NCBI GenBank assembly: GCA_017530505.1
Contig: JAFXMI010000035.1
Coordinates: forward strand, 35,383-99,382
Source of the DNA: Clostridia bacterium
GTDB lineage: Bacteria; Bacillota; Clostridia; TANB77; CAG-508
Length of the DNA: 64,000 nucleotides
Direction: 5' to 3'
The notes below the pieces were generated by a model, which saw only the letters and a program-made list of their open reading frames with translations, did no database searches and had not been told where the DNA came from. The position numbers and the translations under genes are program-made. Positions 20,364-37,228 of this stretch are shown here, piece after piece; the first letter of the stretch is position 1, and every line of letters starts with the position of its first letter.

Positions 20364-21252
20364 TGGAATTACATATTTAATTTCAGAAGGTTTTAGTAAT
20401 GTTTTTAAAAATAAAAAAGGTACGACAACATCGTTAATTACAATGATTTGTACAATGTTTATGTTTGGAGTTACTTTTGCCATTGGTCAAAATGTAAATT
20501 ATATAATGGAACAAGTTAAGCAACAACAAGGTATAGAGGTATTTATTTTAAATGATGCTACAGATGAAGATGTTAATATACTTGGAGAAAAGATAAAAAA
20601 ATTAGATGGGGTAAGTACAGCTACTTATAAAAGCAAGCAAGAAGCCTTAGATTCTGTAAAAGAGTCTTTTAAAGATTATCCAGAAGCAATTGCTGGTTAT
20701 GAAAATGATTATATTTTTCCAGCATCATATATTGTAAAATTAACAGATTTAAATAAGGCAGAGGAAGTTGAAAATGCTATAGAAGAAATGGAAAGCGTAA
20801 AAAATATAAGAAGTAGCAATGATACTATAAATACTTTAATAAAAATTGCAAATGGAATTAGAATAGCAATTGCTGTTGTTTTTGTTGGTTTACTAATAAT
20901 AGCAATAACAATTATTTCAAATGCAATAAAATTATCTGTTCATAATAGAAGAAAAGAAATTTCAATTATGAAATATGTAGGTGCAACAAATAGTTTTATT
21001 AGAGGACCATTTTTAGTAGAAGGTGTAATAATAGGTATTTTTGCTGCTTTTGTAACTGTTATTTTAATTACTTTTACGTATGATGCAGTTGCTACGCAAA
21101 TTGTGACTTCTCAAGTATTACAGGTAATGAATGTAACTTTATTGCAATATTCTGAAATCTTAAAACTAATTATTATAGTTTATGTGGTTTTAGGTGTTGG
21201 TATTGGAATGATAGGTAGCGGTCTATCAATGAGAAAGTATTTGGAGGTATAG
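20353..21252 (+). CDS. ftsX: FtsX permease
   Basis: GTG start overlapping the ftsE end; extracellular domain plus 4 TM helices. Confidence 0.8.
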   Translation: MRYNGITYLISEGFSNVFKNKKGTTTSLITMICTMFMFGVTFAIGQNVNYIMEQVKQQQGIEVFILNDATDEDVNILGEKIKKLDGVSTATYKSKQEALDSVKESFKDYPEAIAGYENDYIFPASYIVKLTDLNKAEEVENAIEEMESVKNIRSSNDTINTLIKIANGIRIAIAVVFVGLLIIAITIISNAIKLSVHNRRKEISIMKYVGATNSFIRGPFLVEGVIIGIFAAFVTVILITFTYDAVATQIVTSQVLQVMNVTLLQYSEILKLIIIVYVVLGVGIGMIGSGLSMRKYLEV

Positions 21253-21260
21253 CAAAATAA

Positions 21261-22595
21261 ATGAAAACAATTATTAAAATTAATTTAATTACGCTTTTAA
21301 TTTTAGTAATATTTTGTTTAAATTGTATATCTGTTTTTTCAGCAGAGGAAATTGAATTTGAAACAGAAAATTCTGAAGGAGAATATATTAAAGATTCATT
21401 TTCAGAGGTAAAAAATGATGAAGAAAATAAGAGTAATGAAGAAACTGAGCTAGATTCATTAAAAAATCAAAAAAACAATCTAGATAATACATTATCTAAC
21501 ACATATATGCAACTTAGTATAGTTCAAAGTCAGCTATCAGAATCATTATATGAAATAGAGCAATTAGATCTTCAAATAATCCAAAAAAACGAAGAAATAG
21601 AAGAGTTAGAAAGAGAAGAAAAAAAGGTTTTAGCTTCAATAGAGGTTGCTCAAAAAACTTTAGCCGAAGCTCAAGAAAAATATGAAATACAAAAAAAACA
21701 ATTAGATGAAAGATTAGTTGCAACTTATGAAATGGGACCTACTACATATTTAGACATGTTATTAAAATCTAAAAATTTAAGTGATTTCTTATCTAATTAT
21801 TATAGAATATCTGAAATTGCCAAAGTAGATCAAAACTTAATAGAATCTTTTTGTGAAGTATCAAAAAAAATTAAAGAAATAAAAACAACATTAAATACTA
21901 ACAAAAAAATACTTGAGCAATCAAGGATTGCAAACGAAGAATTAAAAATTGTTTTAGAAAATTTAAAAATTGTTCAAAATGGGAAAGTAGATAGCTTAAA
22001 TACTGAAGATAGAGCTATTCACGAAAAAATTGAAGCATATCAATCGGAATTAGAAGCTATTGAATCTGAAATTAGACTTTTATCATTATCTTATGTTGGA
22101 GCAGAATATGTTGGCGGTGTTATGGCTTGGCCTGTACCAGGTTATACTAGAATAACTTCTAAATATGGAATGAGGACACATCCAATTACAGGAATTTATA
22201 AACTACATACAGGAACAGATATTGGAGCACCAACAGGAGCAGATTTTGTTGCAGCAAATGATGGAATTGTTATTAAGGCTTGCTATAATGGAGCTTATGG
22301 AAATATGGTTATTTTAGATCATGGTGGTGGAATACAAACATTATATGCACATGGCTCAGAAATTTTAGTAGAAGAAGGTCAAATTATTACAGCAGGTACA
22401 CCAGTATTAAAAGTTGGATCAACAGGATATTCTACAGGAGCTCATGCACATTTTGAAGTTAGAATTAATGGTAATCCAGTAGAGCCGTTAGACTATATTA
22501 CTTCTTATGTTACAAAAGTTGATGAAGAGAATTCGGACAATAATCATGATAATATTGAGATTTTAAATATGGAGGAAAAATCGGAAAATGAATAA
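21261..22595 (+). CDS. Coiled-coil M23 (LytM) metallopeptidase, EnvC/PcsB-like
   Basis: Signal peptide, long coiled coil, HTGTDIGAPTGADFVAANDG...GAHAHFEV. Confidence 0.8.
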   Translation: MKTIIKINLITLLILVIFCLNCISVFSAEEIEFETENSEGEYIKDSFSEVKNDEENKSNEETELDSLKNQKNNLDNTLSNTYMQLSIVQSQLSESLYEIEQLDLQIIQKNEEIEELEREEKKVLASIEVAQKTLAEAQEKYEIQKKQLDERLVATYEMGPTTYLDMLLKSKNLSDFLSNYYRISEIAKVDQNLIESFCEVSKKIKEIKTTLNTNKKILEQSRIANEELKIVLENLKIVQNGKVDSLNTEDRAIHEKIEAYQSELEAIESEIRLLSLSYVGAEYVGGVMAWPVPGYTRITSKYGMRTHPITGIYKLHTGTDIGAPTGADFVAANDGIVIKACYNGAYGNMVILDHGGGIQTLYAHGSEILVEEGQIITAGTPVLKVGSTGYSTGAHAHFEVRINGNPVEPLDYITSYVTKVDEENSDNNHDNIEILNMEEKSENE

Positions 22596-23757
22596 TAATA
22601 TTATTTTAAAAAATACATATATTGTTATTATATTATTAATTATTTTTATATTTCCTATTTCAATTTATGCAACTTCAAGAAGTGAGTTAGAAAATCAATC
22701 TCAAGAACTTGACAAAAAAATTCAAGAAACACATACCGAAATTCAGGGAGTAAAATCTCAAATGTCAAAAGAGCTTACTCAGATTAACAGATTGAATATT
22801 CAAATTACTGAATATCAAAGTGAAGTTGAGGATTTAGAAAATAAAATAACAGGATTAGAGTCTGAAATTTCTGAAAAAAATTCATTTATTGCTCAAAAAG
22901 AAGCTGATTTTGCTGAAAAGAAAGCTATATTAGAAAAAAGACTTGTTGCAATTTATGAAGCAGGTAATACTTCCTATTTAGATATGCTTTTGAGCTCGAA
23001 AGGATTATCAGATTTTATTTCTAAATATTATTTAATTACAGAACTTACAAATTGTGATAATGAATTATTATCTTCAATAGAAGAAGAAAGAGCAGTAATT
23101 GCTTTAGAAAGAGATGAATTAAATTCAAAAAAAGATCAGGTTGAACAAGCTAAAAATACTGCTGAAAGGAAAAAGAATACACTAAATTTAACAATAAGTG
23201 AAAAAAATGTAATGGTATCTAGTTTATCTGCAGAAGAGAAAGAATTAGAAGCACAATTAGAAGAATTGGAAGAAGATAAAAGGGCAATTACTAGAGAACT
23301 TTCAAAATATGCTTCAAGTGGTGGTAGTATAACACCTGTTGCACCAAGTGCTGCAGGATATATAAGCCCACTTGCAGGAAAAACAAAAGCAAATATTACA
23401 ACAGGATTTTATGGATATAAAGGTCATACAGGAGCAGATTTCGCTTGTAGTAGTGGAACACCAGTACTAGCTGTAAAAGCTGGAACAGTAATAACATCTA
23501 CAGCTCTTCGTAGGTCTAATGGATCATATAGAAGTTATGGTGAATATGTAGCAATAAATCATCATGATGGAACAATTACATTATATGCTCACATGTTATC
23601 TGGTTCAAGAACTGTAAATCAAGGTGATGTTGTTGTTCAAGGACAACAAATAGGTCAGGTTGGTTCAACTGGAAATTCAACAGGACCTCATTTACATTTT
23701 GAAGTTAGAGTTGGAACCAATGCAACAGCTGTTAATCCATCTCAATACTTACCATAG
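22588..23757 (+). CDS. Second coiled-coil M23 metallopeptidase
   Basis: HTGADFACSSGTPVLAVKAG...GPHLHFEVR. Confidence 0.8.
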   Translation: MNNNIILKNTYIVIILLIIFIFPISIYATSRSELENQSQELDKKIQETHTEIQGVKSQMSKELTQINRLNIQITEYQSEVEDLENKITGLESEISEKNSFIAQKEADFAEKKAILEKRLVAIYEAGNTSYLDMLLSSKGLSDFISKYYLITELTNCDNELLSSIEEERAVIALERDELNSKKDQVEQAKNTAERKKNTLNLTISEKNVMVSSLSAEEKELEAQLEELEEDKRAITRELSKYASSGGSITPVAPSAAGYISPLAGKTKANITTGFYGYKGHTGADFACSSGTPVLAVKAGTVITSTALRRSNGSYRSYGEYVAINHHDGTITLYAHMLSGSRTVNQGDVVVQGQQIGQVGSTGNSTGPHLHFEVRVGTNATAVNPSQYLP

Positions 23758-23838
23758 TTTTAATATAATATGAGAATATTAGACATATTAAAACATAACT
23801 TTTTAATATAATTTATTTTAATAAATGGAGGATACAAA

Positions 23839-25056
23839 ATGGATTCATACGAAAAAAAGCAATTACAATATAAATATATTCTTATAACGGTAATACTAGT
23901 TTGTTTAGTAGCAATAATATCTTCTACTGTAACATATCATTATTATTTTGATAATAACAGTTTAAAAAAATATACTGTTGAATCAAATTCTACATCAGAT
24001 GAAACAATAGATGCAATTTCTAATACGCTAAAGGGATTTAGAAAGATTATTGACAGTAATTTTAAAGGGAAAATAGATGAAGCTAAACTTCTTGATGGAG
24101 CTATTAAAGGTTATGTTAATGGATTAGATGATAAATATTCTGAATATATGACAGCAGAAGAATGGGAAGAGTTTCAAACAATTGCTCTTGGAGATTTTGA
24201 AGGAATTGGAATATATGTAAGCTTAGACAAAAACAATAATGTTGTAATTTTATCTACTATAAAAGAATCTCCAGCAGAAGCTATAGGACTTAAAGAAAAA
24301 GATGTTATAGTAGAGGTAGATGGAGAAAATGTACTTGGAGTTAAAGATGCTTCAGAAGTAACTTCAAAAATTAAAGGACCATCAGGTACAAAAGTTCATT
24401 TAAAAATTGCTAGGGGAGATGAATATTTAGAATTTGATGTTAATAGAGATGTAGTAAAAATATATCATGTTGATTCAAAAATTATAGAAGATGATATTGG
24501 ATATATTTCATTATATACTTTTGATACAGATTGTTCAGTAGAAGTTGAGAAAGCAATAAAAGAATTAGAGAAAGAAGGCGCAAAAAAAATAATTTTAGAT
24601 TTAAGAAATAATACAGGTGGATTGGTTTCAGAGGCATATAAAATTTCAAATTTATTTATTCCAAAAGATAAAGATATATTAATTACAGAATATTCTAACG
24701 GAACAAAAGAAATAAGTAAAACAAAATCTAACAATATTTCAAACATGGAGCTTATACTTTTAGTTAATGAATATTCAGCTAGTGCATCTGAAATTTTAGC
24801 TGGTGCGTTAAAGGATAATAATAGAGCAAAAATTGTTGGAACTACTACTTATGGAAAAGGAATAATTCAACAAGTATTTTCACTTTTAGATGGTAGCGTA
24901 CTAAAACTTACTATTGCAGAATATTATACTCCAAATGGAACTAAAATACATGAAATTGGTTTAGAGCCAGATGTAAAAGTTGAATTACCTGATATTGAAG
25001 ATGAGAAGGATTTTGTTGATACACAACTTAATAAAGCAATAGAATTACTTAAATAG
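23839..25056 (+). CDS. ctpA: C-terminal processing protease (S41, PDZ domain), CtpA/CtpB-like
   Basis: N-terminal TM, PDZ region, S41 core (..LRNNTGGLVSEAY.. / ..VNEYSASASEILAGALKDN..). Confidence 0.85.
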   Translation: MDSYEKKQLQYKYILITVILVCLVAIISSTVTYHYYFDNNSLKKYTVESNSTSDETIDAISNTLKGFRKIIDSNFKGKIDEAKLLDGAIKGYVNGLDDKYSEYMTAEEWEEFQTIALGDFEGIGIYVSLDKNNNVVILSTIKESPAEAIGLKEKDVIVEVDGENVLGVKDASEVTSKIKGPSGTKVHLKIARGDEYLEFDVNRDVVKIYHVDSKIIEDDIGYISLYTFDTDCSVEVEKAIKELEKEGAKKIILDLRNNTGGLVSEAYKISNLFIPKDKDILITEYSNGTKEISKTKSNNISNMELILLVNEYSASASEILAGALKDNNRAKIVGTTTYGKGIIQQVFSLLDGSVLKLTIAEYYTPNGTKIHEIGLEPDVKVELPDIEDEKDFVDTQLNKAIELLK

Positions 25057-25251: not shown

Positions 25252-25339
25252 GCAGATGTGGCGGAACTGGCAGACGCACAGGACTTAAAATCCTGCGGTT
25301 GAATAAACCGTACCGGTTCGATTCCGGTCATCTGCACCA
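25252..25339 (+). tRNA. tRNA-Leu (anticodon UAA) with long variable arm and encoded CCA; prophage attachment site
   Basis: GCAGATG...CATCTGC acceptor stem, anticodon loop CUUAAAA, extra arm CGGUUGAAUAAACCG, T-arm GGTTCGATTCC. Confidence 0.85.
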
Positions 25340-25470: not shown

Positions 25471-25662
25471 ATCACATTAAAATTACATTAAAAAGTATAT
25501 ATAATTACATTAAAAAGTTAGGAACACAATTTTCCTAACTTTTTTTTGAAATATTTTACAAAAATACGGCAGATGAGCGAATTAGTGAAGGCTACATTGA
25601 CTGATATAGCAATATAATTAGAATAAAATGATAATTTTTAATGTGATTTTAATGTAATTTTA
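25471..25662. repeat. Integrase arm-type site candidates: 11-mer ATYACATTAAA repeated 3x direct (25471-25514) and 2x inverted (about 25639-25660)
   Basis: atcacattaaa/attacattaaa units on both sides of the int 3' end and the terminator. Confidence 0.4.
25516..25548. terminator. Bidirectional hairpin terminator (AAGTTAGGA...TCCTAACTT plus T-run) after the integrase
   Basis: 9-bp stem, 8-nt loop, flanked by A-run and T-run. Confidence 0.45.
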
Positions 25663-27084
25663 TGCAACTAATAATAATTTTTTCATAGATGAGGAAAGTA
25701 ACTTATTTTCTTTATAATAATCGCGTAAACCATCTAATTTTTGTCTTTTGTATTTATCCAATATATGACCATAAGTTTGTTCGATTTGAAGCGTTGTAGT
25801 ATGGCCTAGTAAATTTGCAATTGTCATTAAATCCATTCCACTTTCAATACATCTAGTTGTAAAAGTATGTCTAGTCATGTGAATATGACATCCTTTTGGA
25901 AGCTCAAGTTTTACTCCAGCTTCGCGGCAAATTCTTTTGAAAATATCTGTTATTTGAGAATGATTAATATAACTACCATCTTTTTTACAAAAAAGTAGTT
26001 GTTCTTTATTATAAGGATTATTTTTGGCGATTTCGATTTGTTCTTTTATAATGGACTCGACTATTTTTTCTTCAAATACACCAAAAGGTATAAGGCGAAA
26101 GTCAGGTTTATTTTGCTTTCTTTTTTTCTTACCAGTTTTTGTAGCTGTTCCAATAATAATTTTTCTTTCCTTATTTTTAGTTAAAGTTCGTTCTATTTTA
26201 ATTTGTTTTAATTCTAAATTTATATGATCGTCTATATTAAGAGCACCCATTTCTCCAATTCTCATTCCTGTTAATAAACCAATAATAATTATATTTTTAA
26301 TAGTTTTGCTATCATAAGAATTCTTATTTGAGCGAATTAAATTGTTACTTGTGATATATTTCATCAAAGTAATTTGTTCATGTACTTCAAATGGTATGAC
26401 TTCTTGAACATCTAAATCACTAATAGGCATTCTTACTTTTAACATGGGGTTATCAGCATGTATAATTTCTTTATCAATTTCTGCAGTTTCATATGCAATT
26501 TTTATTAATGCTAAAATTTGTTTTATGCAACTTTGACTTAAATATACTTTTGAATCTATAAAGTCTTGTATATCGTCTTTCGTTAATTTTTGCATTGGAA
26601 TATCTCCAATATCACTATTTTCAATATGAACTAAATTGTCTAAATCTCGCTGATAAGTGTTTTCACCAATTATTTTTGAGGACAGTTTGCTATCTAAAAT
26701 TTTTAATATTTTTTGAGATAGAGTAATTCCATATTTTTTGACATATGCTTTTGTTTGTACTTTAGCTTCTGTTTCTTTTTTCTTTTGAACAGCATCTTTT
26801 CGTTTCTTTTCATTTGCAACGGTGGTTTGCTTTCCATTTATTGTTATTTGTGCTTGATTTCTATCATAACAATAAAATCTATCACAGTAATTCAAACATT
26901 CTGTTTTGCATTCCTCACATTTTTTACATTTATCATATCCAGTACGATTATTACAAGCAGTTCTGTCTTTACAATTTTTACATATTGAACATTCTTCAGG
27001 TAAGAATTTTTTTCTCTTTTGTTTAGCGATAGTATTATAAATACAACCCTCGCCATTAGTGTTTCTTGTTCCTTTTTTATTCAT
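25660..27084 (-). CDS. int: Tyrosine site-specific integrase with an unusual about 85-aa N-terminal Cys-rich (13 Cys) domain
   Basis: C-terminal HMTRHTFTTRCIESG...LLGHTTTLQIEQTYGHIL (R-H-R-Y). Start MNKKGTRN behind GGAGGA; N-terminus CIYNT..CSICKNCKDRTACNN..CKKCEECKTECLNYCDRFYC. Confidence 0.85.
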   Translation of the reverse strand: MNKKGTRNTNGEGCIYNTIAKQKRKKFLPEECSICKNCKDRTACNNRTGYDKCKKCEECKTECLNYCDRFYCYDRNQAQITINGKQTTVANEKKRKDAVQKKKETEAKVQTKAYVKKYGITLSQKILKILDSKLSSKIIGENTYQRDLDNLVHIENSDIGDIPMQKLTKDDIQDFIDSKVYLSQSCIKQILALIKIAYETAEIDKEIIHADNPMLKVRMPISDLDVQEVIPFEVHEQITLMKYITSNNLIRSNKNSYDSKTIKNIIIIGLLTGMRIGEMGALNIDDHINLELKQIKIERTLTKNKERKIIIGTATKTGKKKRKQNKPDFRLIPFGVFEEKIVESIIKEQIEIAKNNPYNKEQLLFCKKDGSYINHSQITDIFKRICREAGVKLELPKGCHIHMTRHTFTTRCIESGMDLMTIANLLGHTTTLQIEQTYGHILDKYKRQKLDGLRDYYKENKLLSSSMKKLLLVA

Positions 27085-27126
27085 GATAAAAAATCCTCCA
27101 TTTTTCAAAATATTTTATATAAACAC

Positions 27127-27886: not shown

Positions 27887-28714
27887 TTATACTCCTTTCT
27901 TTTTAAAAGCACTTTTATTTTCGGCTTTTATTACTTTACCTAGCACTTTTATTTTATTTAAGTCTGTGATTTTTAAGTCAATATTCTTATAATAACCATT
28001 CATAGCAGAGAGTATATAATATGTTTTATCTTCACTTAAATTAAATTTTCTAATAGTATTATGATTATCCATATTGATTAGTAGGGTAGCACCATCTTCT
28101 ATATAATCTTGTTTATATACTAGTGCTATGTCACCAATATCTAATAAAGGATACATGGCATCATCTTCAGAAGTAAATTCAAAATAATTTGTATTTGAGT
28201 TTAATACTGAATGACGCAAATTAACTAACTTATTAGAAATATTTTCATTTATTTTTATAAGATCATTGTATAAATCTACTATAGTTAAATTTTCATCAAA
28301 TGAAGAAGTCGATATTTGTTCAGCAAAATTATTAATTTGAGAAACAATATTAGCTTGTTTCTCATTTCGATTTATCAATATTTTTTTTAAATGTTCAAGA
28401 TCACTATTATCTAAATGATATTTATCTAATAAAAATAAATTATCGTCAAAAATTTTATTTGAAATAATTTGTTCTGAAGTATTAGAATTTAAATAACCAC
28501 AAATTCCCATTAGTTCATCGTAGTTGGTTATTCCTCTAGATGCATTAGCAATTTTTTCTAGAATTTTTGGAGTGGGAGGGGAAGGGATTTTCATATTGAT
28601 ATATTTTGATAAATAACTTCTTCCAACCTGAGCACTTGAGGCAAATGCTACTGTACTACCATATAAATCTACAATTTTAGATAAAATTATACTAAATTTT
28701 TTTTGTTCAAACAC
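27887..28714 (-). CDS. CI/LexA-like phage repressor (XRE HTH plus S24 peptidase domain)
   Basis: GTG start behind AAGGAGG. HTH ..GSTVAFASSAQVGRSYLSKYIN..; C-terminal ..YPLLDIGDIALV.. and KVLGKVIK (S24 Ser/Lys dyad region). The ORF-track N-extension to 29023 is spurious. Confidence 0.8.
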   Translation of the reverse strand: MFEQKKFSIILSKIVDLYGSTVAFASSAQVGRSYLSKYINMKIPSPPTPKILEKIANASRGITNYDELMGICGYLNSNTSEQIISNKIFDDNLFLLDKYHLDNSDLEHLKKILINRNEKQANIVSQINNFAEQISTSSFDENLTIVDLYNDLIKINENISNKLVNLRHSVLNSNTNYFEFTSEDDAMYPLLDIGDIALVYKQDYIEDGATLLINMDNHNTIRKFNLSEDKTYYILSAMNGYYKNIDLKITDLNKIKVLGKVIKAENKSAFKKKGV

Positions 28715-28747: not shown

Positions 28748-28856
28748 GTGTGAAAAAAAAATCAACAAAAAATGTGAAAAAAAAATACAAAAAACTATTG
28801 ACAATGATTTACGATAAGTATATAATGCAAGTGTGAAAAAAAAGCACAGAAAGAAA
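28748..28856. promoter_or_regulatory. Immunity switch region: 3 copies of operator-like GTGTGAAAAAAAA plus rightward promoter PR
   Basis: Repeats at about 28748, 28773 and 28831 (a 4th at 29112). TTGACA-17 nt-TATAAT at 28798-28826; the third repeat overlaps +1. Confidence 0.55.
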
Positions 28857-29255: not shown

Positions 29256-29552
29256 ATGACTTGGGAAAATGCACCTGATACGATTGGAGTTGAAGAACTA
29301 ATGGAAATATTAGGTGTTGGAAAAAATTATGCAAGTAATATTTTTAATAGTAGAGGATTTCCAAAAATTGAACAAATTGGAACTTCACTAAAAGCAGATA
29401 AGGAAGCGGCAAGATTATTTTTACAGGGATTTAAAATTAAAGAAAATCCCAAAAATGCAATGGAATATATGATTTTACTAGAATTAAAAAAATTAAATAA
29501 ACAAATGGAAGGAGTTAAAACAAATGAAAAATTTGAAATTACTAATGATTAA
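29256..29552 (+). CDS. HTH DNA-binding protein (excisionase/regulator-like)
   Basis: MTWENAPDTIGVEELMEILGVGKNYASNIFN. Confidence 0.45.
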   Translation: MTWENAPDTIGVEELMEILGVGKNYASNIFNSRGFPKIEQIGTSLKADKEAARLFLQGFKIKENPKNAMEYMILLELKKLNKQMEGVKTNEKFEITND

Positions 29553-30183
29553 TCTGGTCCTCATTATGTTATTTAATTCACTGCCGAATATGAAAATTGA
29601 ATTAAAAGAAGATATGGTCCCGACATCAATGTCGGTAGATAAACAAATAACAAGTAGAAGTGGGAAATTAAGAATTGAACAGCTTGATACATATGTGAAC
29701 TGTACTGAACAGTTAGAAGTACAAACTACGACAGAAATGTCGGAGCTTGCAACAACATATTCTGAAAATTGTATTAACTTAATTAAAAAATATGAAGGTT
29801 TTAGGGAAAATGCTTATAAGTTAGAAGGCGAAAAAAACTGGACAATAGGATATGGACATTCTGGAACAGATGTAAAAGAAGGACAAACTATAACGGAAGA
29901 AGCAGCAGAAAGACTTTTAATTGCAGATGTTCAAGGAGCTTGCGATTATATTTTAACAAAAGTCGAGCATTTACAATTAACCCAAAATGAATTAGATGCA
30001 TTAGTTAGTTTTACATATAACTGCGGAATAGGAAACTTTAATAAATTAACAAAAGATAGAAACAAAGAAGAAATAGTAGAACATATTGAGGCTTATAACA
30101 ATGGTGGTATGAAAGGTTTAGTAAAAAGAAGAACAGAAGAAAAAGAATTATTTTTAGGAGGAACAAAAAATGAAGAAATATAA
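29524..30183 (+). CDS. GH24 (T4/lambda-type) lysozyme with N-terminal signal/anchor sequence
   Basis: ..LIKKYEGFRENAYKLEGEKNWTIGYGHSG..; N-terminal MKNLKLLMINLVLIMLF. Confidence 0.8.
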   Translation: MKNLKLLMINLVLIMLFNSLPNMKIELKEDMVPTSMSVDKQITSRSGKLRIEQLDTYVNCTEQLEVQTTTEMSELATTYSENCINLIKKYEGFRENAYKLEGEKNWTIGYGHSGTDVKEGQTITEEAAERLLIADVQGACDYILTKVEHLQLTQNELDALVSFTYNCGIGNFNKLTKDRNKEEIVEHIEAYNNGGMKGLVKRRTEEKELFLGGTKNEEI

Positions 30184-31256: not shown

Positions 31257-31427
31257 ATGAAATATTGTAGTATTTACGGAAAAGAATTTGAAGGTTGGGG
31301 AAATAATGCTAGACCAGTAAATGAAGGAACATGTTGTGATAATTGTAACACAAATATAGTAATTCCAAGAAGAATACAGGACCATATGAATAGTATAAAA
31401 GGAAGGGAGAATAATTGTGGAAATTAG
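31257..31427 (+). CDS. Small zinc-ribbon protein (56 aa) preceding the SMC-like ATPase
   Basis: MKYCSIYGKEFEGW...GTCCDNCN; overlaps the ATPase GTG start. Confidence 0.3.
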   Translation: MKYCSIYGKEFEGWGNNARPVNEGTCCDNCNTNIVIPRRIQDHMNSIKGRENNCGN

Positions 31428-33354
31428 AATTTATAATTTAAAATTAAAAAATTTTAAAGGAATTAAAGATTTAGAAATAGTATTTGATGGAAAAAATACC
31501 AATATTTATGGTAAAAATGCAACTGGAAAAACAACTGTATTTGATGCTTTTAAATGGTTATTTTTTGATAAAGATAGTAATGATAGAAAAGATTTTAATG
31601 TTAAAACTTTAGATGCAAATAATAAACCTATTCATTACTTGGAGCATGAAGTAGAAGCAACATTAATAATTGATGGACAAGATGTAAATTTTAGGAAAAT
31701 GTTACAAGAAAAATGGGTAAAAAAGAGAGGACAAGAACAGCAAGAATTCTCTGGGCATGAAACAAGCTATTGGATCGATGAAGTGCCAGTAAAAAAGAAA
31801 GATTATGAAGAAAAAATCAATACAATTATACCTGAAAATTTATTTAAATTGATAACAGATCCTTCATTTTTTAACAACCAGATGTCATGGAAAGAAAGAC
31901 GTGAATTATTAATAAACATTTCTGGAACTACTATTACAGACGATATGATATTAACTTCTGATGAACAATTTACAAGTTTAAAAGAAAATTTGGAAGGTAG
32001 ATCCATAGATGATTATAGTAAAGTTTTAGCTTCAAAAATAAAAGAATTAAATAGACAAAAAGAAACTATACCTGTAAGAATAGATGAGCTTACAAAAACT
32101 CTTATAACAGAACATAATATCAATTATGAAGAATTAGAAAATGAAAAGAAAAAATATAATGAAGAATTACAAAAAATTGAATTGGAAATGACAGATATAC
32201 AATCTAGAGTACAGGAAAACATGAAAAAAGCTGACCAATTAGCGAAAGCTAAAAATGAATTAAATAATTTGAAATTTAAACTTGAAATTGAACATAATCA
32301 GAAATATTCTCAAAAATCGATAAATCTTCAAAATGAAAAATCAATGTTAGAAAATAACTTAAGAAGAAAAAAACATGAATATGAAGATTTAGAGTTGCAA
32401 ATTGAAAATGATACAAAAAGAAAAGATGAACTATATAAAAAATGGGATGAAATTATTAATTTGAAATTAGAATTTGATCCAAATTCATTTATATGTCCAA
32501 CATGTAAAAGAGAATATGAAACAGATAAAATCGATGAAATGAAAAAAGAATTTGCAAATAATTTACATATTCATAAAGAATCCGAAAAACAGGCAATCAA
32601 TAAAGAAGGACAAACATTGAAAGCTAGAATAGAAGAAAATACTAGCACAAAGGAAAAAATCCAAAGTGAAATAAATGAGTTTGATATCAAATTACAGGAA
32701 GTAAATAAGCAACTTGCTGATATTGAAAGACAACAATCGAATAGTGAAGATTTTGATGTTACAATACTTCCACAATACCAGGAGAAGATAAAAGAAGTAG
32801 AAAACTTAGAACAGATTGTTAATAAAATAGTTGCAAGTGATACAACTGAAATACAACACAAAAAATCAAATATTATGGAACAAATAAATAATATTGATAG
32901 GCAATTAAATGAAAGAGATGTACAAGAAAAAACAAAAATGCGTATTTCTGAATTAGAAAAAGAAGAAGAAGAAATATCACAGAAAGTACAAGAACTAGAA
33001 TCGCAGCAATTTCAAATAGAACAATTTATTAAAACAAAAGTTGAATTGTTAGAAAATGCTATAAACAGTAATTTTGAAATTGTTAAATTTAGATTATTTA
33101 AAACACAAATTAATGGTGGATTAGAAGAATGTTGCGATACTTTAGTAAATGGAGTTCCATATTCTGATGTAAACAATGCTCATAAAATAATTGCAGGATT
33201 AGATATTATAAAAACTTTATCTAAATTTCATAATAGAACAGCACCAATATTTATAGATAACAGGGAGAGCATAAATACTTTATGTGTAATAGATGCTCAA
33301 ATAATTAGTTTAGTAGTAACTGAAGATCCTAAATTAAGAATTGAGGTGGGATAG
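31417..33354 (+). CDS. Rad50/SbcC-like (AAA_23) ATPase with central CxxC zinc hook in a long coiled coil
   Basis: N-terminus ..LKNFKGIKDLEIVFDGKNTNIYGKNATGKTTVFDAFKWLFF; FICPTCKREY at mid-length; degenerate signature QINGGLEE; Walker B region PIFIDNRES. Confidence 0.6.
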   Translation: MEIRIYNLKLKNFKGIKDLEIVFDGKNTNIYGKNATGKTTVFDAFKWLFFDKDSNDRKDFNVKTLDANNKPIHYLEHEVEATLIIDGQDVNFRKMLQEKWVKKRGQEQQEFSGHETSYWIDEVPVKKKDYEEKINTIIPENLFKLITDPSFFNNQMSWKERRELLINISGTTITDDMILTSDEQFTSLKENLEGRSIDDYSKVLASKIKELNRQKETIPVRIDELTKTLITEHNINYEELENEKKKYNEELQKIELEMTDIQSRVQENMKKADQLAKAKNELNNLKFKLEIEHNQKYSQKSINLQNEKSMLENNLRRKKHEYEDLELQIENDTKRKDELYKKWDEIINLKLEFDPNSFICPTCKREYETDKIDEMKKEFANNLHIHKESEKQAINKEGQTLKARIEENTSTKEKIQSEINEFDIKLQEVNKQLADIERQQSNSEDFDVTILPQYQEKIKEVENLEQIVNKIVASDTTEIQHKKSNIMEQINNIDRQLNERDVQEKTKMRISELEKEEEEISQKVQELESQQFQIEQFIKTKVELLENAINSNFEIVKFRLFKTQINGGLEECCDTLVNGVPYSDVNNAHKIIAGLDIIKTLSKFHNRTAPIFIDNRESINTLCVIDAQIISLVVTEDPKLRIEVG

Positions 33355-33690
33355 ATGAAAAAAATGCAATATAGAGTTTATGAATCCTATGCATTTACAA
33401 AAAATGAAAAAGAAAAGATGCTTATAAATCGAGAAATATATAACGAACTAAAAACAGAATACAAAATACTAAAAATTAGTGATGTAGACCATAGAATGCC
33501 AACAAAAGAAGAATTGGAAAAAAACGATATAGTTTATTCAAGAAAAGCATGTTATGGACATGGAGAATATAAAATTTATAAATGTCCAGAAACGGTACAA
33601 TTAGATGAATTAGCACTAATATGTGATGATGGTAATTTATGTTTTGGATATAGCGGAAGTAGAAATAAAATAACAGTATTTGAAGATTAG
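33355..33690 (+). CDS. Hypothetical protein
   Basis: ORF, 111 aa. Confidence 0.4.
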   Translation: MKKMQYRVYESYAFTKNEKEKMLINREIYNELKTEYKILKISDVDHRMPTKEELEKNDIVYSRKACYGHGEYKIYKCPETVQLDELALICDDGNLCFGYSGSRNKITVFED

Positions 33691-33699
33691 GAGGAACCA

Positions 33700-33930
33700 A
33701 TGTCAAAAAAAGAAGAGGTAATTGTAATATTTGTAAAAAAAGATAATGAGCATGGTATTAGTGTTCATGTTAATAATACAGAGACAATAAATGTTTTAAT
33801 AGGAATTGCCGAAACAATACAATTAATAACAACAAATTCAAACCAAAGTAGAGAACAAGTTATGTCAGATATAAATAAAATTTTGGATATATTAGAAGAA
33901 AAAGAAATAGGAGGAAAAGAAAATGAATAA
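33700..33930 (+). CDS. Hypothetical protein
   Basis: ORF, 76 aa, RBS GGAGGAA. Confidence 0.35.
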   Translation: MSKKEEVIVIFVKKDNEHGISVHVNNTETINVLIGIAETIQLITTNSNQSREQVMSDINKILDILEEKEIGGKENE

Positions 33931-34201
33931 TGAAACAATTTTAAAAATATCAAGTAAATCAAATCCAAGTTCTGTTGCTGGAGCAATAGTTGGTGTATTT
34001 AACGAAAACAAAAAATCAAGAGTAGAGTTGCAAGCAGTTGGAGCTGGTGCAGTAAATCAAGCTGTAAAGGCAATAGCAATCGCAAGAGGGTTTGTTGCTT
34101 CAACAGGTGTTGATCTAGTATGTATACCAGCATTTAATACAATAAAAATTGAAAACGAAGATAGAACTGCTATGAAATTTATAGTAAGGGGGATTAACTA
34201 A
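33923..34201 (+). CDS. spoVS: SpoVS (stage V sporulation protein S) homologue encoded in the prophage
   Basis: ILKISSKSNPSSVAGAIVGVF...LQAVGAGAVNQAVKAIAIARGFVASTGVDLVCIPAF closely matches B. subtilis SpoVS over its full length. Confidence 0.75.
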   Translation: MNNETILKISSKSNPSSVAGAIVGVFNENKKSRVELQAVGAGAVNQAVKAIAIARGFVASTGVDLVCIPAFNTIKIENEDRTAMKFIVRGIN

Positions 34202-34203
34202 TT

Positions 34204-35202
34204 ATGAGTAATGAAATAGTAAAAAAAGAGGATACACAATTACAAGAAAGAAAACCAACAGCAAGTGAAAGATTTACAAATATGGTAGTAAATGAGTTTC
34301 AAGGAAATATAGGCCAATTAAATTTAAATGAATATCAAAAACAATTGATTAGGAATTATTTTATAGGAATCGATAATGCACTAAAAATAGCTGAAACAAG
34401 TCGTTCATATAATAAGAAGAAAGCAAATGATCCAACAGTAACTTGGGATAATGTAAATATGAATAAATTAGCCGTTGATGTAGTGCAGAATGCAAAAATG
34501 GGATTAGATATGTCTATTGCTAATCATCTTCATGTAGTACCATTTAAGAACGGAAAAACAAATAAATATGATTTAACTTTAATGCCAGGATATGAAGGTT
34601 TAAAATATATTGCCGCAAATTTTGCTTTGTATAAAGTAGCGGACATAAAAGTTGAACTAGTACATGAAAATGATGTGTTCCAACCAACATATAAAAACAA
34701 TATTGAAGGATATGAATTTAAAATAACAAATCCATTTTCAAGAGGTAATGTAATAGGTGGATTTGGATATATAAGATACGAAAATGAAGTACATAACAAA
34801 TTAATTGTAATGTCTGTAGATGAATTGTTAAAAAGGAAACCATCAACTGCATCTCCAGAATTTTGGGGAGGACAAAAGGATAAATGGGAAGATGGTAAAA
34901 AAGTTGGAACAGAAGAAATTGAAGGTTGGACAAACGAAATGTTATACAAAACGATGGTAAGAGCAACATGTAAAAAAGTAACAGTAGATCCAAAAAAAGT
35001 AAATGATAGTTACATATATGTGATGGAATCAAATGAAAATTATTATATAGAAAATCAAGAGGAAAAAGTACAAGAAGAAATTGATGAGAATGCTAATAAA
35101 GCATTAATAGACATTGAAACTGGAAAAATTGAAGATACTGAAAATGCATCAAATGAAGAAGTATCTGAAAATGATAATACAACTGAAGGGCCAGCATTTT
35201 AA
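34204..35202 (+). CDS. recT: RecT-family single-strand annealing protein
   Basis: RecT core plus acidic C-terminal tail. Confidence 0.8.
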   Translation: MSNEIVKKEDTQLQERKPTASERFTNMVVNEFQGNIGQLNLNEYQKQLIRNYFIGIDNALKIAETSRSYNKKKANDPTVTWDNVNMNKLAVDVVQNAKMGLDMSIANHLHVVPFKNGKTNKYDLTLMPGYEGLKYIAANFALYKVADIKVELVHENDVFQPTYKNNIEGYEFKITNPFSRGNVIGGFGYIRYENEVHNKLIVMSVDELLKRKPSTASPEFWGGQKDKWEDGKKVGTEEIEGWTNEMLYKTMVRATCKKVTVDPKKVNDSYIYVMESNENYYIENQEEKVQEEIDENANKALIDIETGKIEDTENASNEEVSENDNTTEGPAF

Positions 35203-35945
35203 TGAAATTAAAAATATTAGGTAGCAGTTCATCTGGTAATTGCTACCTAATAGAAGCAACAGAAAATGAAAAGTTAATATTAGATGCAGGTGTTAACTTT
35301 AAAAATGTACAAAAAGAATTAAATTTTAATTTCAAAGGAATTCAAGGTGTACTTGTTACTCATGAACATATGGACCATTTAAAATATGCACCAAATTTTG
35401 CTTTGAATGGAATAAATATATATGCATCAGCTGGAACTTTTTGTAAATTAAATTTAAAAGGTCACAGATTTAAAATAATAAAAGCATTGGAGCAATTTAC
35501 AATAGGAAATTTTATAATTCTTCCATTTGATACAGAACACGATGCAACTGAGCCGCTAGGATTTTTAATACAATACAAACCTACAGGAGAAAAATTGCTT
35601 TATGCTACAGATACATATTATATAAAATACAAATTTAGTAAATTAAATTATTTACTTTTAGAATGTAACTATATTAGAGAAATAGCAAAAGAAAATGTTA
35701 AAAATGGAGTAATAAATAAAACAAGATATATTAGATTGTTGGAAAGCCATTTTAGTTTAGATAATTTATTAAAATTTTTAAATTCTAATGATTTAACAAG
35801 TGCTAAAAACATAATACTTTGTCATCTTTCAAATGATAATGCAAATGAAAAAATAATGAAAGACAAAGTTTTTGAACAAACTGGAGTTCCAACGATGATT
35901 GCAAGGCCAGGACTAGATACTGAATTAAAATTATATCCATTTTAA
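35202..35945 (+). CDS. MBL-fold metallo-hydrolase (likely nuclease partner of RecT)
   Basis: HxHxDH motif VLVTHEHMDHL. Confidence 0.8.
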   Translation: MKLKILGSSSSGNCYLIEATENEKLILDAGVNFKNVQKELNFNFKGIQGVLVTHEHMDHLKYAPNFALNGINIYASAGTFCKLNLKGHRFKIIKALEQFTIGNFIILPFDTEHDATEPLGFLIQYKPTGEKLLYATDTYYIKYKFSKLNYLLLECNYIREIAKENVKNGVINKTRYIRLLESHFSLDNLLKFLNSNDLTSAKNIILCHLSNDNANEKIMKDKVFEQTGVPTMIARPGLDTELKLYPF

Positions 35946-35956
35946 GAGGTGGTTAT

Positions 35957-36274
35957 ATGAATAGTATAAAAGCGATACAACAATTAGAATCATTAAAACG
36001 AGATAGATTGAGTTTTGTGCATAATAACGAATTAGATGAGGTATTTTTAGAAGATATAAAAGCAATAAGTATAGCAATTAAAGCATTAAAAAAATATCCA
36101 GATATCAAAGATAATGATTTTAAATGCAGAATGTGTGGTAAAGAGCTGAAAACATGGAAAAGTATTCAAAGAGGATTTGGACCAGTTTGTGAACGAAAAT
36201 TTTTGAATGATGTATACAATAATCAGCAAATGACTTTAGATACACTTATACACGAAAGAAAGGAGAGGCAATAA
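35957..36274 (+). CDS. Hypothetical protein
   Basis: 105 aa ORF. Confidence 0.4.
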   Translation: MNSIKAIQQLESLKRDRLSFVHNNELDEVFLEDIKAISIAIKALKKYPDIKDNDFKCRMCGKELKTWKSIQRGFGPVCERKFLNDVYNNQQMTLDTLIHERKERQ

Positions 36275-37228
36275 TGGCAAATAAAGACGTTTATTATTTT
36301 AGTCACGATTCCAATGCATTATCAGATCCAAAAATACTTGGAATGAGATGTGACTATGGATTAGAACGGATATGGATTATATTGGGCCATATTAGAAATG
36401 TTAAGAAATGAATCTACATATAGGTTGCCTCTAAATAAAAATACATATAGAGCAATAAAAATGCAAACTGGTACGAACATTGATGTAGAAAAGTATTTAA
36501 ATGATTGTATGAATGAATATAGAGATGATGAGAGCGGAAATGGATTATTTAATACTGATAAAAAAACATTTTGGTCTGCAAGTTTATTAAGAAGAATGGA
36601 AAAATATGAAACATTAAAAGAGAAAAGAAGTCAAGCAGCAAATACAAGATGGAATAAACAAAAAGAAAAATCAAAAAAACAATCTAAAAATGCAAAATTA
36701 TGCAAATGCATAAAAAATATATGCAAATGCATTACACTTGCAAAGGGTAAACAGTACACTTGCAATGCAAACTTGAAAAAAGTATATGCAAAATTATGCA
36801 AATTAAATCAAATTAAATCAAATCAAATTAAATTAAATAAAATAAAAGATATTAAATCTATCTATCCATCTAATCATATCTACCAGGAAAATAAAAATTT
36901 AGACAAAATGATGGATGAGATGGATAAGATAGAATTTGAACGAGTTTTAAATAATTGTGAATTACACAAACTTGCTCCAGAACTTGCTATTGAAATAACA
37001 GAAATTTTAAAGGAAATGTATATAAATACTGAAACAAGAGAAAAAACATTAGAACTTAATTGTAAAAAAGTGTTATATGCATTACACAATTTTGCTATTG
37101 CTAATACAAAAACAAGAATACAAATACCAAAACAATATTTTAAAAAATGTTTATTATCAGCATTACAACAAACGGAATTAAGTGAACAATTTGATATTGA
37201 TGTATTTTATGAAACGGAGGATTACTAA
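36274..37228 (+). CDS. Phage replisome organiser (Lin1244/Lin1753-type N-domain, DnaD-like) with +1 discontinuity at in-frame CGG 36367-36369 and internal origin iterons
   Basis: MANKDVYYFSHDSNALSDPKILGMRCDYGLE-G-YGLYWAILEMLRNESTYRL reads through only if the C is skipped. Confidence 0.65.
36689..36859 (+). repeat. Putative phage replication origin: iterons inside the replisome-organiser gene
   Basis: TATGCAAAATTATGCAAAT x2, TGCAAATGCAT x2, TACACTTGCAA x2, then about 5 tandem AAATTAAATCA units (encoding NQIKSNQIKLNKIK). Confidence 0.5.

Follow-up and report, generated by a model that had tools for sequence, protein, structure and literature searches.

Since spoVS was described genetically in 1995, leads on the molecular function of its product have been confined to an Alba-like fold and to pleiotropic effects on sporulation. 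In cells, the known phenotypes of SpoVS are limited to sporulation, septation, and sigma-D-dependent expression, with spoVS mutants showing both sporulation and septation defects (PMC2732212, PMC8510167). The protein has been assigned to the Alba superfamily as a predicted DNA binder (PMC2732212, PMC11621453). Phage copies of spoVS are already annotated and reported, and in viromes from soil and oxygen-minimum zones the viral gene has been read as a sporulation auxiliary metabolic gene (AMG; PMC6172770, PMC8940887). In the literature, we found no report linking phage spoVS to recombinase modules.

The gene analyzed here lies in a 64,000-nucleotide stretch of Clostridia DNA (hereafter the window, i.e. 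the whole stretch) as an ORF of 92 aa at 33923..34201 on the + strand, with an ATG start and GGAGGA ahead of it. An earlier note on this DNA had proposed SpoVS homology over the full length of the protein, and this is borne out by both profile and structure. Specifically, residues 6–88 align to positions 2–82 of the 83-position Pfam SpoVS profile (PF04232; E=6.9e-36), scoring 122.3 bits where the family cut-off is 24, and the structural model superposes on solved SpoVS. The protein also matches PHROG 35646 ("sporulation protein", E=2.5e-23) and the sequence of the Thermus SpoVS crystal structure 2eh1 (phmmer, E=4e-24), while it matches no NCBIfam model and no PADLOC defence family. It is 66–68% identical to chromosomal copies from Clostridia and Bacillus, and the best match in a scan of GTDB representatives reaches 70% identity; homologues of SpoVS number roughly 6,700 in all. 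The core motifs SVAGAI, QAVGAGAVNQAVKAIAIARGF, CIPAF, and EDRTA are all present, and alignments with chromosomal, Thermus, and phage copies indicate that the invariant SpoVS residues are retained.

The AlphaFold (AF2) model of the protein (pLDDT 90.2) is a single domain with the order beta-alpha-beta-alpha-beta-beta. It superposes on solved SpoVS structures (9a7h_B, 2eh1, and 2ek0) with TM 0.87–0.94 and an rmsd of ~1.1 A, the best structural match being B. subtilis SpoVS (9a7h_B; TM 0.88–0.94), which is 61% identical in sequence. The window protein is a true member of the SpoVS family, and its fold is Alba-like. Its net charge of +4 and pI of 9.65 place it on the basic side of the family, as the bulk charge of prophage-clade SpoVS has a median of +2 (pI 9.0) vs 0 (pI 6.2) for chromosomal SpoVS.

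The note had also called the gene prophage-encoded and placed it between an SbcC-like ATPase and recT in the early operon, and both statements agree with the annotation. A tRNA-Leu(TAA) gene found by ARAGORN (25252..25339, +) is the probable attachment site at the left prophage border, and directly to its right lies a tyrosine integrase gene (25660..27108, -; PF00589, E=2.8e-24). These are followed by a CI-like repressor (275 aa in the gene call on an identical contig) with a Peptidase_S24 domain (27887..28714, -; PF00717, E=6.4e-11), and portal, MuF, capsid, sheath, and tape measure genes complete the evidence for a myovirus-type prophage integrated at tRNA-Leu. The reading that this is simply the host gene is ruled out because a prophage surrounds the ORF and the copies most closely related to it are themselves prophage-borne; the gene also lies outside the conserved (recA)-rny-ymdB-spoVS neighborhood of chromosomes. 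When GenBank phages were searched by megablast with the 12-kb early region, nothing matched, and the prophage family therefore has no cultured close relative there.

Divergent from the repressor gene is a strong putative sigma-70-like early promoter (28798..28826, +; TTGACA-17-TATAAT), which matches the consensus at 12 of 12 positions. Judged by this consensus match, the early transcript, which would include SpoVS, probably starts here. No terminator-like site was found on the + strand between this promoter and 38 kb. Around spoVS itself, the promoter scan gave nothing above chance, and no + strand terminator flanks the gene.

The recombination module opens with an SMC/SbcC-like ATPase of 645 aa (31417..33354, +), which matches AAA_23, SMC_N, AAA_15, and the SbcC-like phrog_77 (E=2.9e-74) and shares 33–39% identity with its counterparts in phages phiCp-D, B054, and Page. 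Two small ORFs that the earlier note did not mention, of 111 and 76 aa, separate it from SpoVS. The first of these (33355..33690, +; phrog_10455, unknown function) occupies a variable slot in which the ORF is kept, missing, or swapped among related prophages. The other (33700..33930, +), an ORF call with a counterpart only in locus L175 (57% identical), has a stop that overlaps the SpoVS start by 8 nt. Downstream, the ATG of recT falls 2 nt past the SpoVS stop, and a spacing of 1–3 nt to the next gene recurs after SpoVS at other loci. The recT product is a RecT-family single-strand annealing protein (SSAP; 34204..35202, +; PF03837, E=1e-14; phrog_34753 and phrog_148).

Next to recT is its conserved partner, an MBL-fold metal-dependent hydrolase (35202..35945, +; Lactamase_B_2, E=3.7e-12; phrog_392, E=7.5e-79) that is 42–46% identical to the RecT-adjacent counterpart in Staphylococcus, Listeria, Bacillus, and Clostridium phages. 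We rejected the possibility that it is an Apyc1-type anti-Pycsar enzyme, as the Pfam score is 22 vs a cut-off of 50 bits and no protein of solved structure is related to it in sequence. The SbcC-like ATPase, RecT-family SSAP, and MBL-fold hydrolase are thus co-linear in a phage early region, the arrangement by which the module is recognized. The genes that follow encode a DUF6011 zinc-ribbon-like protein (35957..36274, +; PF19474, E=2.6e-9), kept downstream of the MBL gene in related prophages, and a probable replisome-organiser-like protein (36398..37228, +). As the Pfam matches of this last gene are weak, its assignment comes from positional equivalents in L170, L180, and L191 that carry Lin1244_N (PF14297), the one in L170 being 58% identical. 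Gene neighborhood is an indirect guide to function, and early operons also carry host-takeover genes, e.g. a Spo0E-like gene in the early region of phiCp-D.

Analyses of related prophages reveal that SpoVS is a stable part of this arrangement. Among nine sampled homologues (68–83% identity), eight lie in a prophage module with the order ATPase-(variable small ORFs)-SpoVS-RecT-MBL-DUF6011. These modules are found with tyrosine or serine integrases and with differing immunity regions, and SpoVS is retained even where the RecT allele falls to 29% identity with that of the window. We also ran the reverse test, anchoring IMG/VR loci on the MBL gene and treating those with MBL identity of at least 60% as close. 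SpoVS sits between ATPase and RecT in 25 of these 26 close loci and in none of the 49 more distant modules. Compared with five prophage homologues, SpoVS has a dN/dS of 0.14–0.33 at a dS of 0.5–0.97, with similar values for the flanking ATPase and MBL genes, as would be expected of a gene that has long had a function in the module. SpoVS is under purifying selection, embedded in the operon, and conserved in its linkage.

Morons are expected to carry an autonomous promoter and/or terminator, to be sporadic among close relatives, and to lie outside core functional modules. As such, we do not place the window gene in the moron/AMG class, the category to which PHROGs assigns phrog_35646: it lacks a separate promoter or terminator, is present in 25 of 26 close relatives, and is embedded in the recombination module. 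It is a fixed, translationally coupled component of that module across a large prophage family. It is an accessory rather than a core component, because the cultured phages phiCp-D, B054, and Page work without SpoVS.

In other phages, SpoVS recurs beside genes for SSAP, SSB, RecA, and RuvC. For example, one other lineage has the order YqaJ-DUF1351-SpoVS-RecT, with YqaJ two genes upstream of SpoVS, and in L089 the order is DUF2800 nuclease (PD-(D/E)XK)-SpoVS-Enc34/gp2.5-type ssDNA-binding protein-polymerase. SpoVS in L089 is thereby part of the duf2800-gp2.5-polA module, for which a lack of ssb is known (PMC8093625). A primase context reads DnaB_C-Toprim-SpoVS-SSB (phrog_14578, 9e-43)-PolA. A deep freshwater clade, whose exonuclease is closest to Streptomyces phages, has RecA-Cas4-like exonuclease-RuvC-SpoVS, where RuvC lies immediately upstream of SpoVS in 65 of 80 loci and the synteny persists to ~40% RuvC identity. 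A DnaD-like gene precedes SpoVS in L110, and a Rep initiator is nearby in L087. Overall, 7 of ~12 distinct viral contexts are DNA-metabolism settings. The context in L090/L095 (TerL...SpoVS...portal) is unrelated, and the neighbors in TS-12, LysYB1/2, and KLEB27-3, most of them hypothetical proteins, give no information.

Two of the six GenBank "phage" matches (MT835471 and MT836246) were rejected as viral. Their gene order is purA or a WYL protein, ymdB, SpoVS, and then exonuclease VII or TrkH, and we judge them to be chromosomal fragments because of these neighbors; part of the AMG literature may thus rest on contamination. Cellular spoVS is syntenic with recA, rny, and ymdB in GTDB loci and directly follows ymdB, which encodes a calcineurin-like phosphoesterase, in most sampled genomes. 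A neighbor-joining tree of 82 SpoVS columns gives bootstrap support only to the freshwater (60/60) and YqaJ (98/100) groups, and it does not separate one phage capture from several.

SSB genes are found near SpoVS in some phages, and they also occur in sister modules of the window prophage. No OB-fold SSB was found in the window by profile HMM or tblastn, nor in the loci of the SpoVS clade by profile HMM, while 20 of 49 sister modules carry one (Fisher p=6e-5, uncorrected for kinship). This complementarity is seen in a single clade, and the other 29 of the 49 sister modules also have no SSB. The SSB of sister modules, where there is one, follows the MBL gene and does not occupy the SpoVS slot. 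These positions and counts, together with L091, which has both genes, led us to reject SpoVS as a same-position substitute; because SSB and SpoVS co-occur in L091, SpoVS is not a simple SSB replacement. We also rejected the idea that the window protein is itself an OB-fold SSB, since its fold is Alba-like and the SSB searches of the window were empty. Any SSB-like role would for the same reasons be one of analogy, not homology.

How might such a protein serve the phage? The fixed position of SpoVS beside the recombinase gene suggests a role on DNA rather than in sporulation control, and we give about even chances to phage SpoVS being a nucleic-acid-binding accessory of phage recombination and replication. 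A small, probably dimeric, Alba-like protein of the SpoVS family has settled as a fixed early recombination/replication component in a large family of temperate phages of gut Clostridia. In this scenario, it would probably be made from the early lytic transcript, and only upon induction, with translation coupled to the preceding gene and recT following 2 nt on. Most likely it would act by binding either nucleic acid (ssDNA, dsDNA, or RNA:DNA hybrids) or the enzymes of recombination. It would in this way help RecT in single-strand annealing and support recombination-dependent replication, and it might take on some of what a phage-encoded SSB does in sister modules.

The earlier note had proposed that the phage manipulates its host, and the near-canonical sequence is what such a reading would start from: because all conserved residues are kept, the phage protein could simply do the job of host SpoVS, and it is 66–68% identical to the chromosomal Clostridia and Bacillus copies and 61% to B. 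subtilis SpoVS. Acting as an added dose or as a variant of the host protein, in infection or in lysogeny, it would shift sporulation, polar septation, or autolysin expression to the benefit of the phage, e.g. by blocking or delaying entry into the spore. The defects of cellular mutants (PMC8510167, PMC2732212) agree with this, as do a host class rich in spore formers, gut phages reported with sigma factors and spo0A (PMC9429907, PMC10294663), the Spo0E-like gene of phiCp-D, and the virome interpretations (PMC6172770, PMC8940887). Yet an action on the host leaves unexplained why SpoVS stays locked upstream of RecT while modules are shuffled, and why SSAP, SSB, RecA, RuvC, and polymerase genes are its neighbors in unrelated phages. 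There is also no independent promoter that would express it in the lysogen, and two of the GenBank "phage" spoVS records are chromosomal. Thermus, Thermotogae, and Atribacterota are groups not known to sporulate. SpoVS is nonetheless found in bacteria under these names (cf. PMC2732212), and it is carried by Stenotrophomonas phage TS-12 and by the freshwater actinophage-like group, whose hosts do not form endospores or probably do not. The gene context lends the sporulation idea no support, and we regard it as unlikely.

The neighbors of SpoVS can also be read as pointing to an enzyme rather than to DNA. In the PDB, entry 9a7h is an integrative model in which B. subtilis SpoVS is in complex with YunD, annotated as a metallophosphoesterase/5'-nucleotidase-type enzyme; chromosomal spoVS directly follows the phosphoesterase gene ymdB in most sampled genomes, and the upstream neighbors of phage SpoVS are often nucleases (DUF2800 PD-(D/E)XK, RuvC, and YqaJ two genes up). 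SpoVS could on these grounds be a small subunit that regulates a phosphoesterase or nuclease and, in the phage, modulates the MBL hydrolase or the SbcC-like ATPase/nuclease as it prepares ends for RecT. However, the link to YunD is the title of a single PDB entry, the MBL hydrolase does not have the fold of YmdB and YunD and is related in sequence to no protein of solved structure, and the immediate downstream partner in several lineages is an SSB or SSAP, not a nuclease. We consider this proposal quite improbable, although it overlaps with the accessory role on DNA because both put SpoVS into DNA processing. Lower still is the chance that a single capture brought SpoVS from a Clostridia chromosome into a junction that tolerates insertions, where it would have little function or an unrelated purpose such as counter-defence. 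The junction between ATPase and RecT is indeed a variable slot with different small ORFs among relatives, and it is empty in cultured phages that have the module. By contrast, selection on SpoVS is as strong as on its neighbors, the gene is kept in 25 of 26 close relatives while the surrounding ORFs turn over, it occupies comparable positions in other phage lineages, and it matches no PADLOC defence family; a mere passenger is thus very unlikely.

A wider extension of the recombination/replication role is tentative and, in our view, less likely than not. SpoVS may generally be an Alba-fold protein that works together with those for ssDNA binding, annealing, or strand exchange, with the sporulation phenotypes of Bacillus as downstream consequences; its repeated recruitment by phages (into RecT, gp2.5, RecA/RuvC, and SSB/PolA modules) and the recA-rny-ymdB-spoVS synteny of cells would then reflect the same biochemistry. 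The contexts assembled here indicate that the viromics label of "sporulation AMG" for viral spoVS is probably misleading. If the link to recombination is true, SpoVS would be a new accessory component of the phage single-strand-annealing systems on which recombineering tools are built, and it would open a way to learn what cellular SpoVS does. If SpoVS alters sporulation instead, this abundant prophage family of gut Clostridia would be a tractable case of dormancy control by phages.

Compared with cellular SpoVS (B. subtilis SP5S_BACSU; Thermus thermophilus 2eh1 and 2ek0), the window copy has a common family, length class, fold, and set of core motifs, but it begins with MNNE, ends in KFIVRGxN, is 3–6 residues longer, and is more basic. 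It adjoins RecT in a prophage early operon, whereas the cellular copy adjoins YmdB. The annotated phage copies (PHROG 35646; Lysinibacillus LysYB1/2, Stenotrophomonas TS-12, and Bacillus KLEB27-3) belong to the same family. These earlier phage genes were labelled moron, AMG, or sporulation without analysis of context, while the window copy is a fixed member of a recombination module, in a large gut-Clostridia prophage clade that has no member among GenBank phages.

At the level of fold, the window model matches Alba, Sso10b, RNase P/MRP Pop6/7, and Rpp20/25 (Foldseek E 1.6e-4 to 2e-3, TM 0.55–0.72), although sequence identity to archaeal Alba/Sso10b is only 12–20%. No Alba protein is known to us as a partner of single-strand annealing proteins. 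At the level of gene order, Staphylococcus PVL, Listeria B054, Bacillus Page, and C. perfringens phiCp-D have the same ATPase-RecT-MBL arrangement (PHROGs 77, 148, and 392), followed, as in the window, by a DnaD/replisome-organiser-type gene. In these cultured phages the ATPase directly adjoins RecT, whereas in the window clade SpoVS and variable small ORFs precede RecT; PVL carries an OB-fold SSB after MBL, while the window clade has no detectable SSB. Compared with phage SSB partners, SpoVS is Alba-like instead of OB and lies upstream of the SSAP, where ssb lies downstream of MBL in sister modules. A parallel in organization is seen with modules that pair a recombinase with an SSB or accessory protein, e.g. 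Sak4 or Erf with a cognate SSB and duf2800-gp2.5-polA, in which a small gene is likewise tightly linked to the recombinase.

Judged by its sequence, the 92-aa open reading frame (ORF) at 33923–34201 (+ strand) unambiguously encodes SpoVS. The Pfam profile PF04232 matches it along nearly the entire profile (E = 6.9e-36), as do PHROG 35646 (E = 2.5e-23) and the sequence of the Thermus SpoVS crystal structure (E = 4e-24), and all conserved SpoVS residues are kept in the alignments. Its AlphaFold model is confident (pLDDT 90.2, beta-alpha-beta-alpha-beta-beta) and superposes on B. subtilis and Thermus SpoVS with TM scores of 0.87–0.94, while remoter structural matches include archaeal Alba/Sso10b and the Pop and Rpp proteins of RNase P/MRP. 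The protein is basic (net charge +4, pI 9.65), and SpoVS of the prophage clade is generally more basic than the chromosomal protein, i.e. median charge +2 and pI 9.0 (n = 79) vs 0 and 6.2 (n = 39; Mann–Whitney P = 2e-13, with non-independent sequences). The ATG start is preceded by GGAGGA and overlaps the stop of a 76-aa ORF by 8 nt, and recT starts 2 nt past the SpoVS stop.

The DNA comes from a MAG recorded as "Clostridia bacterium", and up to ~25 kb it represents host chromosome (ClpC, MgtE, PrmC, FtsX, two PcsB-like M23 peptidases, and a CtpB-like protease). This is followed by a tRNA-Leu(TAA) gene (25252–25339), the probable attachment site of a myovirus-type prophage whose integrase (25660–27108) lies directly to its right. 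Genes for a zinc-ribbon protein and an S24 repressor come next, then a long rightward early operon and the structural genes (portal, MuF, capsid, sheath, and tape measure); the right end of the prophage falls outside the window. An earlier note had proposed a prophage-encoded SpoVS located between an SbcC-like ATPase and recT, and the profile, structural, and genomic evidence agrees; this context also rules out that SpoVS is simply the host gene. That note omitted two small ORFs, as the operon reads SbcC/SMC-like ATPase (31417–33354), ORFs of 111 and 76 aa, SpoVS, and RecT (34204–35202), followed by an MBL-fold hydrolase (35202–35945), a DUF6011 protein, and a probable replisome organiser. A single strong promoter-like site stands out (28798–28826, 12/12 consensus), oriented divergently to the repressor gene; from there to 38 kb the + strand shows nothing resembling a terminator, and promoter-like matches across the region number fewer than in shuffled sequence. 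One upstream promoter-like site and no terminator suggest that SpoVS belongs to the early lytic transcript and would be expressed with it.

Other features of the region are worth recording. A 219-aa protein with a Phage_lysozyme domain (29524–30183; PF00959 in the gene table of an identical contig) and a hydrophobic N-terminus is encoded close to the beginning of the early operon, 5' of the recombination genes, an unusual location for a lysozyme. Just 5' of the packaging genes, the prophage encodes a ParB N-terminal domain fused to an N6/N4 DNA methylase (44206–45384). On the host side, a gene for a 630-aa HerA/DUF87-like ATPase overlaps a 180-aa ORF (13248–15678, − strand), perhaps forming a pair of the defence or conjugation type. 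A cell-division/cell-wall cluster adjoins the prophage at 20320–25056, where FtsX is followed by the PcsB-like peptidases, coiled-coil and in tandem, and then by the S41 protease, which carries a CtpB_N-like domain.

The position of SpoVS is conserved among its relatives. Nine of the nearest homologues (68–83% identity, mostly 89–92 aa) were examined on their own contigs, and eight are in prophages (the window protein and homologues P0006, P0010, P0013, P0041, P0046, P0084, and P0114), the ninth being chromosomal (P0120, 86 aa). In all eight, the ATPase is followed by variable small ORFs and SpoVS; RecT comes next, occasionally after one intervening small ORF, then MBL and, in most, DUF6011. 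These prophages differ in integrase (tyrosine or serine), repressor region, ORFs ahead of SpoVS, and RecT allele; SpoVS is in every one. An MBL-anchored search of IMG/VR identified 26 loci with an MBL of at least 60% identity and enough upstream sequence, and SpoVS lies between ATPase and RecT in 25 of these, compared with none of 49 more distant modules. For six family members, SpoVS dN/dS is 0.14–0.33 (dS 0.5–0.97; Nei–Gojobori), comparable to that of the flanking ATPase (0.11–0.50) and MBL genes (0.08–0.34), and thus purifying selection has acted on SpoVS as it diverged together with the module. As such, it is a fixed part of the phage module, and neither a stray host gene nor a moron.

Within otherwise 75–90% identical modules, RecT itself has been swapped in three loci, with ATPase, SpoVS, and MBL unchanged: two RecTs (L173 and L175) are only 29% identical to that at 34204–35202, and a third (L178) is a 254-aa variant. 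The annealing protein has here clearly undergone allele replacement. The ATPase–SpoVS junction (33355–33930, and the same slot in loci L167–L192) is hypervariable, with relatives carrying ORFs of 111+76, 108, 58, 114, 73, 71, 197, or 128+201 aa, or none, and no known function among them.

Searches by tblastn with several SSBs, and with a profile HMM built from 20 SSBs of the distant SpoVS-less modules (filters off), find no OB-fold SSB in the 64-kb window or in any SpoVS-clade locus. By contrast, an SSB lies within 6 kb in 20 of the 49 SpoVS-less modules (Fisher P = 6e-5). This complementarity is suggestive only, because the SpoVS clade represents one evolutionary event, an SSB is missing from most SpoVS-less modules too, and those that have one carry it downstream of the MBL gene.

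On bacterial chromosomes, spoVS has the well-known neighbors rny, ymdB, and usually recA, and the closest chromosomal copies to the window protein (68–70% identity) are from uncultured gut Clostridia. Two Acidaminobacter MAGs (L027 and L040) carry two copies in tandem, recalling the spoVS1/spoVS2 pair of the Bacillus cereus group (PMC8510167).

SpoVS is also very common in IMG/VR (one scan confirmed at least 581 stretches and a second 547), and viral copies sort into about twelve distinct contexts, the window family being one. Seven of the 12 are replication or recombination modules. For example, SpoVS follows a YqaJ exonuclease and DUF1351 and precedes a RecT too divergent for a BLAST match to the window RecT (L276, L277, and L282). 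In L089, it is inserted between a DUF2800 PD-(D/E)XK nuclease and an Enc34/gp2.5-type ssDNA-binding protein followed by a polymerase, a module described as conserved without ssb (PMC8093625). In L091 and L283, the order is DnaB-like helicase, Toprim primase, HTH protein, SpoVS, SSB (phrog_14578, E = 9e-43), and PolA. A deep freshwater clade combines RecA, a Cas4-like exonuclease, a RuvC-like resolvase, and SpoVS, with RuvC directly 5' of SpoVS in 65 of 80 loci and synteny holding to about 40% RuvC identity; its hosts are probably freshwater Actinobacteria, given a GC content of about 40% and an exonuclease closest to those of Streptomyces phages. Two further modules of this kind place SpoVS between a DnaD-like gene and GemA (L110, a Mu-like contig) and two genes 5' of a replication initiator (L087). 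In the other contexts, SpoVS lies near only a weak RecE-like neighbor (L278–281), between large terminase and portal genes (L090 and L095), or among uninformative neighbors (Stenotrophomonas phage TS-12, Lysinibacillus phages LysYB1/2, and Bacillus phage KLEB27-3). In four architectures, it is directly 5' of a gene for ssDNA binding or annealing (RecT twice, gp2.5/Enc34 once, and SSB once), with gaps of 1–3 nt. With SSB and SSAP genes numbering one or two among some 50–100 in a phage, chance would be very unlikely to produce four adjacencies of this kind in twelve lineages, by our rough estimate rather than a computed null.

The phage gene itself is known and not exotic: GenBank phages annotated with spoVS form three groups, PHROG 35646 is categorized as "moron, AMG and host takeover", and virome studies of soil and oxygen-minimum zones have reported viral spoVS as a sporulation AMG (PMC6172770, PMC8940887). 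The main text of a sporulation-gene survey of human-gut phages does not list it (PMC10294663), and our full-text literature search found no paper linking SpoVS to phage recombination or replication modules. What is new is its fixed place in single-strand-annealing modules, and this context makes the 30-year-old question of SpoVS function directly testable. Two human-faeces records labeled "UNVERIFIED Bacteriophage sp." are chromosomal fragments around spoVS and not phage, i.e. MT835471.1 (adenylosuccinate synthetase, YmdB, SpoVS, and, further downstream, exonuclease VII) and MT836246.1 (WYL protein, YmdB, SpoVS, and TrkH). They probably reflect contamination or misclassification, and call for caution in the AMG literature.

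In the best-supported reading, which we regard as an even call, SpoVS is an accessory of phage recombination or replication. Upon induction, the early operon would be transcribed, and SpoVS, translationally coupled to its neighbors, would be made with the ATPase, RecT, and MBL hydrolase. The Alba-fold protein, probably as a dimer, may then bind nucleic acid or a recombination protein and so assist RecT-dependent annealing and recombination-dependent replication.

The earlier note, right on identity and location, had proposed that the phage manipulates host sporulation or cell division, a function for which we find no support and which we consider unlikely. The intact conserved residues are consistent with such a takeover, spoVS phenotypes are known only in sporulation and septation (PMC2732212, PMC8510167), and gut and clostridial phages do carry sporulation regulators (PMC10294663, PMC9429907). 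One is the annotated Spo0E-like aspartyl-phosphate phosphatase gene in the early region of phage phiCp-D (10165–10296), just 3' of its ATPase-RecT-MBL-DnaD genes and a separate instance of a clostridial phage carrying a sporulation-pathway gene in its early operon. However, a takeover explains neither why coupling to recombinase genes is conserved among unrelated phages nor why SpoVS is present in non-sporulating bacteria and in phages whose hosts do not, or probably do not, form endospores. If nucleic acids are a target of cellular SpoVS itself, both readings could hold. A close relative of the accessory reading, which we hold to be improbable, is that SpoVS is the small partner of a phosphoesterase or nuclease. 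The title of PDB entry 9a7h, a structure-search match, pairs B. subtilis SpoVS with YunD in an integrative cross-linking/AI model, which hints at such a partner; ymdB and spoVS are paired on chromosomes, and nuclease genes are often 5' of phage SpoVS. That SpoVS is a passenger or has some other role seems least probable to us.

The module is also found in cultured phages. In phiCp-D, Listeria B054, Bacillus Page, and Staphylococcus PVL, the ATPase gene abuts recT with nothing between them, whereas the window clade has SpoVS at this position; SpoVS is thus a lineage-specific accessory outside the module core.
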